Origin: Escherichia coli
Lineage (GTDB): Bacteria; Pseudomonadota; Gammaproteobacteria; Enterobacterales; Enterobacteriaceae
Length of the DNA: 64,000 nucleotides
NCBI RefSeq assembly: GCF_003334405.1
Contig: NZ_QOWM01000010.1
Reading direction: 5' to 3' (one strand)
Position numbers and translations under genes: made by a program. Below the pieces are notes generated by a model. It saw only the letters and a list, made by a program, of their open reading frames with translations. It was not told the DNA's origin and made no database searches. The stretch's first letter is position 1; each line of letters begins with the position of its first letter. Of the stretch, positions 9,470 to 54,467 are shown piece by piece.

Positions 9470-10762
9470 TTATACGGTTTTATTGCGCTTCATGACCATT
9501 GCCACAATAAGGCTGAGTAAGAGTGAGCCAATAATCCATATCAACGCACGGCTACCCTGGGACCACAGACTGTAGATAAAGCCAACGATCACCAACAACA
9601 TCACCAACGTACCAACGATAAGAATCGGCAACGAGGCGTGAATATCATGACGCAGGCGGATCGCCACCACAAACACCGCCAGGTAGCAAATCAAAAAGGT
9701 GGCGCTGGCAACGCTGGCGAGTGAGCCTAAATTCAGTGCCGCCGTCATCAGCATAATCAACACCACGACAATAATGTTGCCCCAGGTACTCTGCCGCCAC
9801 AGGGATTTATTCATTAGCTTCGGCAGTTCGCGTTCGCTGCCCATGTTGTCCATGATGTTAAACACGGCGAACAGGTTCGCGTTAATGGCTGAAGCCGTCG
9901 CCAGTAAAGCGCCGATGACGACGATCACATAACCCACATGCCCGAGCAGCGGAGAAGCAGCCTGCGCTACGGCGGTATCGGCATATTTTTCTAACTCTAA
10001 TGCCGATACATCGCTAAGCAAAACCAGTGCCAGCGAGATATAAAGCAACGTGGTAACGCCAATCGCCACCAGAAACGCCCGTGGCATAATGACCTGCGGA
10101 TCTTTCACTTTATCCGCCGCGTTCGCCATCATGCCAAAGCCCGCATAGGCAAGGAAAGTTATCCCAATACAGGAGAAGAACGCACCGGAGCTGGGGGGCG
10201 CAGAGACGGAAATATGCGCCGGTTGCAGCGACCAGACACCGGCAATAATCAGCAATAACAGGATCATCATTTTAATGCCGACGAGGATCACTTCCAGCCG
10301 CCCTACCGCATGGTTGCTTAAGGAGTTGAAAAGCGTCATCACCGCAATGATCCCCAACGCGTAGAGCAAAATAAGGTGCTCCTCCTGGCTGCCTTCATGC
10401 AAAAACTGCACGGCATAAGCGCCAAAAGCACGGGCGACCATGGCGATGCTCACCGCCAGCGTCAACAGGTACAGTAACGAGAGCGCCAGCGAAAAGACGC
10501 CGTTGCCTAATCCGCGACGAAAGAAGTCGATAATGCCGCCATTGCTGGGATAGCTCGCCCCCAGACGCGCATAGGCATAACCGGAAAACATCGCCACAAT
10601 ACCGCCAAAAGCAAAGGCGACCCAGGTCGAGGCTTCCATTAGCAATGCAGCCTGCCCCAGCAGCGCGAAGATCCCCGCCCCCACCATTGCCCCAATGCCG
10701 ATGGAAACGACGTTCCATAGACCGAGAGGTTTGTTACCGTTATTACCTTCCGTGTTCATCAT
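9470..10762 (-). CDS. ybaT: APC-family amino-acid transporter, 430 aa
   Basis: ORF track 430 aa, about 12 predicted TM helices; lies immediately downstream of glsA on the same strand. Confidence 0.92.
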   Translation of the reverse strand: MMNTEGNNGNKPLGLWNVVSIGIGAMVGAGIFALLGQAALLMEASTWVAFAFGGIVAMFSGYAYARLGASYPSNGGIIDFFRRGLGNGVFSLALSLLYLLTLAVSIAMVARAFGAYAVQFLHEGSQEEHLILLYALGIIAVMTLFNSLSNHAVGRLEVILVGIKMMILLLLIIAGVWSLQPAHISVSAPPSSGAFFSCIGITFLAYAGFGMMANAADKVKDPQVIMPRAFLVAIGVTTLLYISLALVLLSDVSALELEKYADTAVAQAASPLLGHVGYVIVVIGALLATASAINANLFAVFNIMDNMGSERELPKLMNKSLWRQSTWGNIIVVVLIMLMTAALNLGSLASVASATFLICYLAVFVVAIRLRHDIHASLPILIVGTLVMLLVIVGFIYSLWSQGSRALIWIIGSLLLSLIVAMVMKRNKTV

Positions 10763-49085: not shown

Positions 49086-50372
49086 TTACGCGTTATAGGC
49101 ATTCTCGCCGTGGCTGTTGACATCCAGCCCTTCTCGCTCCTGCTCTTCCGGTACACGCAGACCAACCGTCAGATCCGCCAATTTGTAGCCGATAAATGCC
49201 ACAACACCGGACCAGACGATCGTAATGGCGATGCTTTCCAGCTGTACCAGCAACTGATGGCCCATCGTCACACCTTCAGCGAAGCCCACGCCGCCCAGCG
49301 AGCTGGCGGCAAAAATCCCGGTCATGATACAGCCGACAATGCCACAAACGCCGTGCACACCGAAGACATCGCAGGGATCATCCACCCGCAGCAAGCGTTT
49401 GAGCATGGTAACGCCCCACAAGCCCGCCAGACCAGCTACCACGCCGATAATCAACGCGCCGCCAACCCCAATGTAGCCGCAGGCTGGCGTCACGCCGACC
49501 AGGCCGGCAATCGCGCCAGAACACGCCCCCAGCAGTGAAGGCTTACCACGCAGCGCCCATTCACCGAAGATCCAGCCAAGAATTGCCGCCGCCGTTGCGA
49601 CCACAGTATTCACAAATGCCAGTGCCGCGATTTCATTCGCCGTGCCCGCTGACCCGGCGTTAAAGCCAAACCAACCGATATAGAGAATGGCAGTCCCGGT
49701 GAAGACCATCGGCAGGTTGTGCGGTTTAAACGCCTCTTTACCGAAGCCCACGCGTTTTCCTATCAGATACGCGCCCACCAGACCGGCGATTGCGGCGTTA
49801 ATGTGCACCACGGTGCCACCCGCGAAATCCAGCGCACCGTGAGAAGCCAGCAAACCACCGCCCCACACCATATGCGCAATCGGAATGTAAGAGAGCGTCA
49901 GCCATACCACCACGAAAATCAACACAGCTGAGAAGCGGATTCGTTCCGCCAGCGCCCCAACTATCAAGCCGACGGTAATGCAGGCAAACGATCCCTGAAA
50001 CGCCACGTGGATATACTGATAAATGCTGCCCATCACCGCCGTCAGTTCGATGTTTTTCAGCATCAACCAGTTAATGTTGCCGAAGAAGTTGTTGCCCTCA
50101 CCAAACGCCAGCGAGTAACCGTAAACCACCCAGAGAATACAGACCAGTGCAAATGTCACCGTCACCTGCGTCAGCATCGACAGCACGTTTTTGCCGCGAA
50201 TCAACCCACCGTAAAACAGGGCAATCCCCGGAATAGTCATAAACAGCACCAGCGCAGTACAAATCATCATAAACGCATTGTCGGCTTTATCGGCCACCGC
50301 AGGTGCAGCCATTACCAGTCCCGGAAGCATCGCCAGTGAAGCAAGCCCAGTTTTTATCGTCGCTATCTTCAT
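49086..50372 (-). CDS. amtB: Ammonium channel AmtB, 428 aa
   Basis: ORF track 428 aa; signal peptide and 11-TM Amt/MEP fold; lies immediately downstream of glnK on the same strand. Confidence 0.97.
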   Translation of the reverse strand: MKIATIKTGLASLAMLPGLVMAAPAVADKADNAFMMICTALVLFMTIPGIALFYGGLIRGKNVLSMLTQVTVTFALVCILWVVYGYSLAFGEGNNFFGNINWLMLKNIELTAVMGSIYQYIHVAFQGSFACITVGLIVGALAERIRFSAVLIFVVVWLTLSYIPIAHMVWGGGLLASHGALDFAGGTVVHINAAIAGLVGAYLIGKRVGFGKEAFKPHNLPMVFTGTAILYIGWFGFNAGSAGTANEIAALAFVNTVVATAAAILGWIFGEWALRGKPSLLGACSGAIAGLVGVTPACGYIGVGGALIIGVVAGLAGLWGVTMLKRLLRVDDPCDVFGVHGVCGIVGCIMTGIFAASSLGGVGFAEGVTMGHQLLVQLESIAITIVWSGVVAFIGYKLADLTVGLRVPEEQEREGLDVNSHGENAYNA

Positions 50373-50401
50373 TTTTCGTTCCTGTTGCTGTGTGCCAGAG
50401 A

Positions 50402-50740
50402 TTACAGCGCCGCTTCGTCGGCTTCGCCGGTACGAATACGAATGACGCGTTGCAATTCAGCGACGAAGATTTTGCCGTCGCCAATTTTTCCGGTGTAAGC
50501 CGCCTTACTGACGATATCGATCACTTCATCGAGTTGGTCATCAGCAATCGCCACATCAATTTTTACTTTTGGCAGGAAATTGACGCTGTATTCCGCCCCC
50601 CGGTACAGCTCGGCATGCCCTTTCTGACGCCCGAAACCTTTCACTTCGGTGACGGTCAGGCCCTGAATACCAATGGAAGATAACGCTTCACGAACGTCTT
50701 CCAGCTTGAATGGTTTGATTATCACGGTCACCAGCTTCAT
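50402..50740 (-). CDS. glnK: PII nitrogen regulatory protein GlnK, 112 aa
   Basis: ORF track 50402..50878; trimmed to the ATG at 50740 (MKLVTVIIKPFKLEDVREAL...). T-loop uridylylation region RYRGAEY-like (LYRGAEYSV). Confidence 0.96.
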   Translation of the reverse strand: MKLVTVIIKPFKLEDVREALSSIGIQGLTVTEVKGFGRQKGHAELYRGAEYSVNFLPKVKIDVAIADDQLDEVIDIVSKAAYTGKIGDGKIFVAELQRVIRIRTGEADEAAL

Positions 50741-50792
50741 AGATCCCCTCCGGTCAGAATTCGGTAATGGTTCTGCTACACGAAGAAGGTAT

Positions 50793-50808
50793 TGCAAGCG
50801 GTGTGCCA
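50793..50808 (-). promoter_or_regulatory. sigma54 (-24/-12) promoter of glnK-amtB
   Basis: Minus strand reads TGGCAC-accgc-TTGCA (consensus TGGCAC-N5-TTGCA), about 55 bp upstream of the glnK ATG. TGCAC-containing dyads further upstream (about 50860..50905) are candidate NtrC sites. Confidence 0.8.
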
Positions 50809-50920
50809 GAAATGAAAAACGAGAAAGAGAGCAGGAAGTTAAGAAGTTTGAAAATGAAAACGCACTATGACAGTGCACAGTGCGTTACATTTTTGCACCA
50901 ACGATGAAATATTGCGCTAT

Positions 50921-54467
<3,547 letters not shown>

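Follow-up and report, generated by a model that had tools for sequence, protein, structure and literature searches.

The glnK-amtB promoter of Escherichia coli: a sigma-54 element with putative upstream NtrC sites

The mdlB–glnK intergenic region and its sigma-54 element

Within the 64-kb window (the whole stretch of E. coli DNA that was analysed), a 180-bp gap at 50741..50920 separates mdlB from glnK. It is bounded by the mdlB stop codon (50921-50923) and the glnK ATG (50740-50738), and both flanking genes are encoded on the minus strand and are co-directional. The genes and core promoter features are as follows.

50921..52702, minus strand: mdlB, encoding an ABC transporter, the upstream co-directional gene (open reading frame and RefSeq annotation)
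50402..50740, minus strand: glnK, encoding PII-2, a P-II family nitrogen regulator of 112 aa (open reading frame and RefSeq annotation)
49086..50372, minus strand: amtB, encoding an ammonium channel of 428 aa, in the same operon as glnK (open reading frame and RefSeq annotation)
50808..50793, minus strand: sigma-54 −24/−12 element of glnKp, TGGCAC-ACCGC-TTGCA, TGGCACACCGCTTGCA (exact match, conservation and published motif)
50782, minus strand: predicted +1, 42 nt upstream of the glnK ATG (deduced from the GC of the −12 element, with the C at 50794 as −12)
50745..50751, minus strand: glnK Shine-Dalgarno sequence GGAGGGG (from the sequence, with its Gs invariant in a 15-sequence alignment)

The spacing from glnK to amtB is 29 nt. 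The 180 bp are 100% identical to positions 472418-472597 of K-12 MG1655 (NC_000913.3), and a 901-bp query around the gap has matches in 5424 of 5426 complete E. coli genomes, the best of which are 100% identical. Among the E. coli matches listed, the intergenic region is at least 97.8% identical; in five sampled variants (97.8-99.4% identical), substitutions occur only outside the −24/−12 core and the two putative NtrC sites, A and B, described below. The element is glnKp itself, not merely a look-alike. It is already known and nothing new: passages of PMC3870243 and PMC9853098 cite van Heeswijk et al. 1996 and Atkinson et al. 2002 for glnKp as the glnK-amtB promoter. Compared with the K-12 promoter, we find the same locus, an identical sequence and the same −24/−12 motif as that recovered by ChIP-seq and gSELEX, with no difference between them.

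One E. coli isolate departs from this arrangement. In 30859_5#287 (NZ_OZ040756.1; locus ~197-226), the intergenic match ends 14 nt before the ATG and continues as GGTGATGCTGCCAACTTACTGATTTAGTG, which we take to resemble a terminal repeat of IS1; in this isolate, glnKp and the ribosome-binding site of glnK appear to be split apart by an insertion.

The −24/−12 element, TGGCACACCGCTTGCA, matches all 11 specified bases of TGGCAC-N5-TTGCW, with GG at −24, GC at −12 and consensus spacing between them. It is the single exact TGGCAC-N5-TTGCA in the 64-kb window, where 0.05 would be expected and where 5 of 100 shuffles contain one. The element is intergenic, lies on the glnK strand and places the predicted +1 42 nt before the ATG, in agreement with the start predicted in PMC4591121 (motif centre + 19; distance 42); the published studies consulted give no mapped 5′ end for it. 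To view this element across species, we scanned for GlnK in one genome per species, which yielded 79 loci, and aligned E. coli with 14 other Enterobacterales that share the mdlB-glnK-amtB order. Intergenic DNA is otherwise poorly conserved in this 15-sequence alignment, with a mean column identity of 41%. Against this background, TGGCA of the −24 box (50808-50804) and TTGC of the −12 box (50797-50794) are invariant, and each of the 15 loci has the element 59-104 bp before its ATG.

Published experiments place sigma-54 at the same site. In sigma-54 ChIP-seq, peak OS03 lies upstream of glnK (b0450); its motif, CTGGCACACCGCTTGCA, is on the plus strand, and the start predicted from it is 42 bp from the beginning of the gene (PMC4591121 Table 1). 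In addition, gSELEX with RpoN holoenzyme gave a peak between mdlB and glnK with CTGGCACACCGCTTGCA as its motif (PMC8743547). Reporter constructs, too, have employed glnKp as a working promoter that responds to NtrC (10.1101/086108; PMC7045595). A sequence-only reading of this DNA had assigned TGGCAC-N5-TTGCA at 50793..50808 on the minus strand as a −24/−12 element; the exact match and the published sigma-54 site of glnKp bear out this assignment. Comparison with the known architecture of the glnK promoter leads to the same place, as the region corresponds to MG1655 glnKp and the −24/−12 element to the published motif. An Rfam scan of 50300..51300 returned only a sub-threshold snoRNA chance match.

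A second sigma-54-like element with one mismatch, TGGCACTGGTTTTGCT, is found elsewhere in the window at 10017..10032 on the minus strand. By arithmetic from the glnK ATG, its centre corresponds to U00096.2 512,537, which is the published intragenic ChIP-seq site IS02 in ybaT (PMC4591121 Table 2).

Putative NtrC sites upstream of glnKp

Upstream of the −24/−12 element lie two 17-mers that resemble NtrC-binding dyads, together with an isolated half-site.

50877..50861, minus strand: putative NtrC site B, TGCACTGTCATAGTGCG, centred at −87, matching 10/14 positions of TGCACCA-N3-TGGTGCA (supported by conservation and phasing)
50897..50881, minus strand: putative NtrC site A, TGCAAAAATGTAACGCA, centred at −107, weaker, matching 9/14 positions of the consensus (supported by a conserved 20-bp offset)
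50900..50894, minus strand: TGGTGCA, a perfect NtrC half-site that shares bases with the left half of site A and has no partner half (from the sequence)

Sites A and B are adjacent, 20 bp apart from centre to centre, and their positions at −107 and −87 fit the range of NtrC enhancers, which lie ~80-150 bp upstream of a sigma-54 promoter. The sequence-only reading had described TGCAC/GTGCA repeats between 50860 and 50905 as consistent with NtrC enhancer sites, naming two plus-strand stretches, cgcactatgacagtgcacagtgcg at 50861..50884 and ttttgcaccaacg at 50891..50903, both of which are found at those positions. The region it chose fits NtrC binding, as judged by conservation and published binding data; the dyads themselves are here redrawn to 50861..50877 and 50881..50897. 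In these terms, cgcactatgacagtgcacagtgcg consists of site B, a 3-bp linker and the last four bases of the right half of site A, and ttttgcaccaacg combines the left half of site A with the overlapping perfect TGGTGCA half-site. The perfect repeat CGCACT-N12-AGTGCG inside cgcactatgacagtgcacagtgcg is not spaced as a single NtrC dimer would require; it results from the inverted orientation of the right halves of sites A and B relative to each other.

Matches of this quality are not enriched in the 64-kb window. TGCACCA-N3-TGGTGCA occurs 35 times at 10/14 or better (32 expected), close pairs of NtrC-like sites 16 times (15.8 expected) and GCAC-N7-GTGC once (2.06 expected). Scanning for NtrC sites was a check that the same reading had proposed: site B at 10/14 and site A at 9/14 are present, but the count does not rise above chance. 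Because 9/14 to 10/14 matches are common by chance, the dyad feature is weak on its own, and with counts at chance level we dropped consensus counting as evidence and used conservation instead. The significance of the NtrC dyads rests on position, conservation and published binding data. With respect to position, the sole GCAC-N7-GTGC of the window is at 50862..50876, 87 bp upstream of glnKp. A third consensus-like 17-mer, TGCGCTATTCAGGCGCT (50913..50929, 9/14), which overlaps the mdlB stop codon, was dismissed, as the stretch is not conserved.

In site B, the pattern GCAC..T.GTGCG (50876-50873, 50867 and 50865-50861) is invariant in all 15 Enterobacterales, as is the CA of the left half of site A (50895-50894); the other invariant columns are two Gs in the Shine-Dalgarno stretch, one more leader position and the ATG. 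In 12 of the 15 loci, a 17-mer resembling site A (8-9 of 14 positions) precedes site B by exactly 20 bp. The TGGTGCA half-site at 50894..50900 is conserved only in Escherichia, Citrobacter and Enterobacter within the 15-sequence alignment. The arrangement is not confined to the Enterobacterales: GCAC-N7-GTGC is found no more than 200 bp upstream of the −24/−12 element in 25 of the 35 glnK loci that have such an element near the ATG. Orthologous glnK promoters of Enterobacterales and of gamma- and beta-proteobacteria likewise carry this dyad upstream, with the −24/−12 element of the Enterobacterales in the interval before the ATG given above.

At NtrC-activated promoters, dependence on the face of the helix is expected for an enhancer this close to the promoter. 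Across species, the distance from site B to the predicted +1 ranges from −87 to −149, with values in the Enterobacterales of −87, −97, −118, −130/−131 and −140 to −142 and similar values outside this order. These distances are phased: a scan of periods from 7 to 16 bp peaks at 10.5 bp, with a Rayleigh R of 0.73 (Monte Carlo p = 0.0002). Orthologous promoters thus differ in enhancer–promoter distance by roughly whole helical turns, as in the step from −87 in Escherichia to −97 in Citrobacter. E. coli and E. albertii have the shortest spacer (−87); relative to 50809..50858, their relatives have ~10, 31, 43 or 54 extra bp, each near a whole number of turns. In Enterobacter sp. Bisph1, the DNA between the NtrC site and the −24 box contains an extra hairpin, AGCCCGC-ACC-GCGGGCT followed by CGTTTTT, whose sequence suggests a separate terminator inside the looping DNA.

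Occupancy of the region by NtrC, and the dependence of glnK expression on it, come from published experiments. In nitrogen-starved cells, glnK-amtB is peak 1 of NtrC ChIP-seq; glnK mRNA is not readily detected after deletion of glnG, and complementation restores it (PMC4066584). NtrC gSELEX also gave a peak in the mdlB–glnK spacer (PMC8743547), and the NtrC-specific activity at glnKp, a promoter described as depending on NtrC phosphorylation alone, changes 400-fold (PMC3870243). Nitrogen control of the PII protein and the ammonium channel, as the sequence-only reading had supposed, agrees with these ChIP-seq, gSELEX and glnG-deletion data. The ChIP-seq interval, U00096.2 471741-471821, corresponds to 50741..50821 of the window; it covers both promoter and leader and lies 40-80 bp away from the dyads. 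This distance is within ChIP resolution, and the interval therefore supports the region, not the exact sites; that the two 17-mers are the actual NtrC contact sites is what we infer.

Features facing transcription from mdlB

Between the mdlB stop codon and the glnK start are a hairpin and two CT-rich tracts; the hairpin and the proximal tract could influence RNA arriving from upstream.

50849..50886, minus strand (the sense of mdlB and glnK): terminator-like element, an 11-pair hairpin AACGCACUGUG/CAUAGUGCGUU (50886..50859) and then a U-rich tail, UUCAUUUUCA (terminator scan)
50821..50838, minus strand: distal CT-rich tract, CTTCCTGCTCTCTTTCTC, between the enhancer and the −24 box (from the sequence)
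50782..50789, minus strand: proximal CT-rich tract, CCTTCTTC, covering −7 to +1 and known from published work as an anti-Shine-Dalgarno 'insulator' of glnKp (10.1101/086108 and RNA folds)

The hairpin begins 34 nt after the mdlB stop codon and comprises 11 pairs (5 of them G-C), a 6-nt loop and the tail UUUUCAUUUUC. A 56-nt fold has a predicted energy of −20.2 kcal/mol (z = −4.5), and none of 200 shuffles is as stable. On the sense RNA, the perfect CGCACT/AGTGCG repeat forms this hairpin, which is built from the right halves of sites A and B.

For the proximal tract, Levy et al. described an anti-Shine-Dalgarno insulator in glnKp, with a critical 7 nt near −4, that silences translation only on read-through RNA (10.1101/086108), and glnKp is the founding example of their CT-rich insulators. 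Their assays used synthetic constructs, whereas the results here are folds of the native sequence. In an RNA started at 50782, the Shine-Dalgarno sequence GGAGGGG (50751..50745) has a probability of being unpaired of 0.50; in read-through RNA it pairs with CUUCUUC (50788..50782), and this probability is 0.004. The tract CCTTCTTC is thus present here and, in its native context, is predicted to sequester the Shine-Dalgarno sequence only in read-through RNA. Sequestration as strong is seen with 3.7% of random genomic 76-mers placed upstream and with 20% of composition-matched shuffles. Accessibility of the Shine-Dalgarno sequence is lower in read-through RNA in all 15 aligned loci, and composition-matched shuffles often behave likewise, so the effect is mainly compositional and does not reflect a specific conserved pairing. 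Levy et al. also described insulation as mainly compositional (10.1101/086108). The distal tract CTTCCTGCTCTCTTTCTC may be the 'distal CT-rich region' of that study, in which mutations did not correlate with insulation (10.1101/086108).

Interpretation of the locus and alternative explanations

Every computationally testable sequence feature of a sigma-54 promoter and an NtrC enhancer is present in this region, and we consider it nearly certain that the region is glnKp, the sigma-54-dependent, NtrC-activated promoter of E. coli glnK-amtB. In the mechanism we envisage, sigma-54 RNA polymerase holoenzyme would wait as a closed complex on TGGCAC-N5-TTGCA (50808..50793). Upon nitrogen limitation, phosphorylated NtrC would assemble on the dyads at −87 (50877..50861) and −107 (50897..50881), reach the polymerase by DNA looping on a fixed face of the helix and use ATP hydrolysis to drive formation of the open complex. 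Transcription would then start near 50782, a position predicted from the −12 element, and lead to synthesis of GlnK, a PII paralogue, and of AmtB, the ammonium channel. Transcription arriving from mdlB could be met by two features, the hairpin and U-tract, as a possible terminator, and the CT-rich anti-Shine-Dalgarno tract at −7..+1.

A closely related known promoter in E. coli is glnAp2 of glnALG, which also has a sigma-54 −24/−12 element with tandem upstream NtrC dyads. Read as a control in MG1655, the glnAp2 dyads are TGCACCAACATGGTGCT and AGCACTATATTGGTGCA, upstream of TGGCACAGATTTCGCT. They match the consensus at 13/14 and 12/14 positions and are spaced by 32 bp, whereas those of glnKp match at 10/14 and 9/14 and are spaced by 20 bp. 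Further sites of low affinity, termed 'governor' sites, are present in the glnAp2 region, and a sigma-70 promoter, glnAp1, overlaps there (PMC3870243, 10.1101/086108). By contrast, glnKp combines a perfect core promoter with a weaker enhancer and no overlapping sigma-70 promoter.

Three other explanations of the sequence deserve consideration. If the −24/−12 match were a chance or inactive sigma-54 binding site, glnK would be driven by another promoter. Sigma-54 does bind many non-productive sites in E. coli (PMC4591121), including the ybaT site in this window (10017..10032), and the EcoCyc column of the table in PMC4591121 marks glnKp as 'P', for predicted. Nevertheless, the glnKp element is intergenic, correctly oriented, 42 nt before the ATG as measured from its predicted +1 and conserved in position in 15 of 15 Enterobacterales; a scan of 50300..51300 for a sigma-70-like promoter found none; and NtrC-dependent induction and glnKp reporter activity have been published. 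An inactive site is accordingly a reading to which we give almost no credence. Nor is it any more probable that an enhancer-binding protein other than NtrC uses the dyads. Sigma-54 has several activators in E. coli (PMC8743547), and neither site A nor site B matches the NtrC consensus perfectly, but the conserved core, GCAC-N7-GTGC, is an NtrC-type dyad (consensus per PMC8743547), NtrC ChIP-seq and gSELEX match the region, and deletion of glnG abolishes glnK mRNA.

A somewhat stronger case, which we still regard as very improbable, is that the repeats are primarily an intrinsic terminator of the mdlAB transcript, with NtrC acting elsewhere or promoter-proximally. With its 11 pairs and the tail UUUUCAUUUUC, the hairpin that starts 34 nt downstream of the mdlB stop codon has the form of a terminator, and the centre of the NtrC ChIP-seq interval from PMC4066584 lies closer to the promoter. 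Moreover, stem and T-run are kept in nine close relatives, which include Escherichia, Citrobacter, Enterobacter, a Klebsiella-labelled genome and Superficieibacter, with one stem pair showing a T:A to C:G double change. The long stem and T-run are absent, however, in Yersinia, Rahnella, Acerihabitans and Photorhabdus, where GCAC..T.GTGCG of site B is still invariant, and a terminator would need neither the 17-bp NtrC geometry nor the phasing to the −24/−12 element. Covariation in the stem is no better than in shuffles (0.196 versus 0.194, with 224 of 500 shuffles reaching the score), and its arms, as NtrC half-sites, are inverted repeats anyway. The supplements of two Term-seq studies contain no mdlB 3′ end, and both mdlB and glnK are absent from them.

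We conclude from this pattern of conservation that NtrC binding is the deeply conserved function of the repeats; within the E. coli clade, it is plausible that the hairpin acts as a terminator. Neither role excludes the other. For example, in Escherichia, Citrobacter, Enterobacter and close relatives, the repeats could form a dual-use element in which the dyads bind NtrC as DNA and their right halves form the stem of an mdlAB terminator as RNA, a proposal that we put forward tentatively and judge to be less probable than not.

For the reading of genomes, the region serves as a positive control, in that a textbook sigma-54 promoter with its NtrC enhancer was recognised from raw sequence by a reader without tools. 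The possible overlap of enhancer and mdlB terminator and the helical phasing of the enhancer across species are mildly fresh and leave our understanding of the system unchanged. More broadly, glnKp serves as a standard reporter for the activity of NtrC, and ammonium uptake is gated by GlnK and AmtB, which makes this biology important, though it is well established. If the dual-use element is real, it would, together with the anti-Shine-Dalgarno tract, keep glnK-amtB under strict nitrogen control despite a co-directional operon 180 bp upstream.
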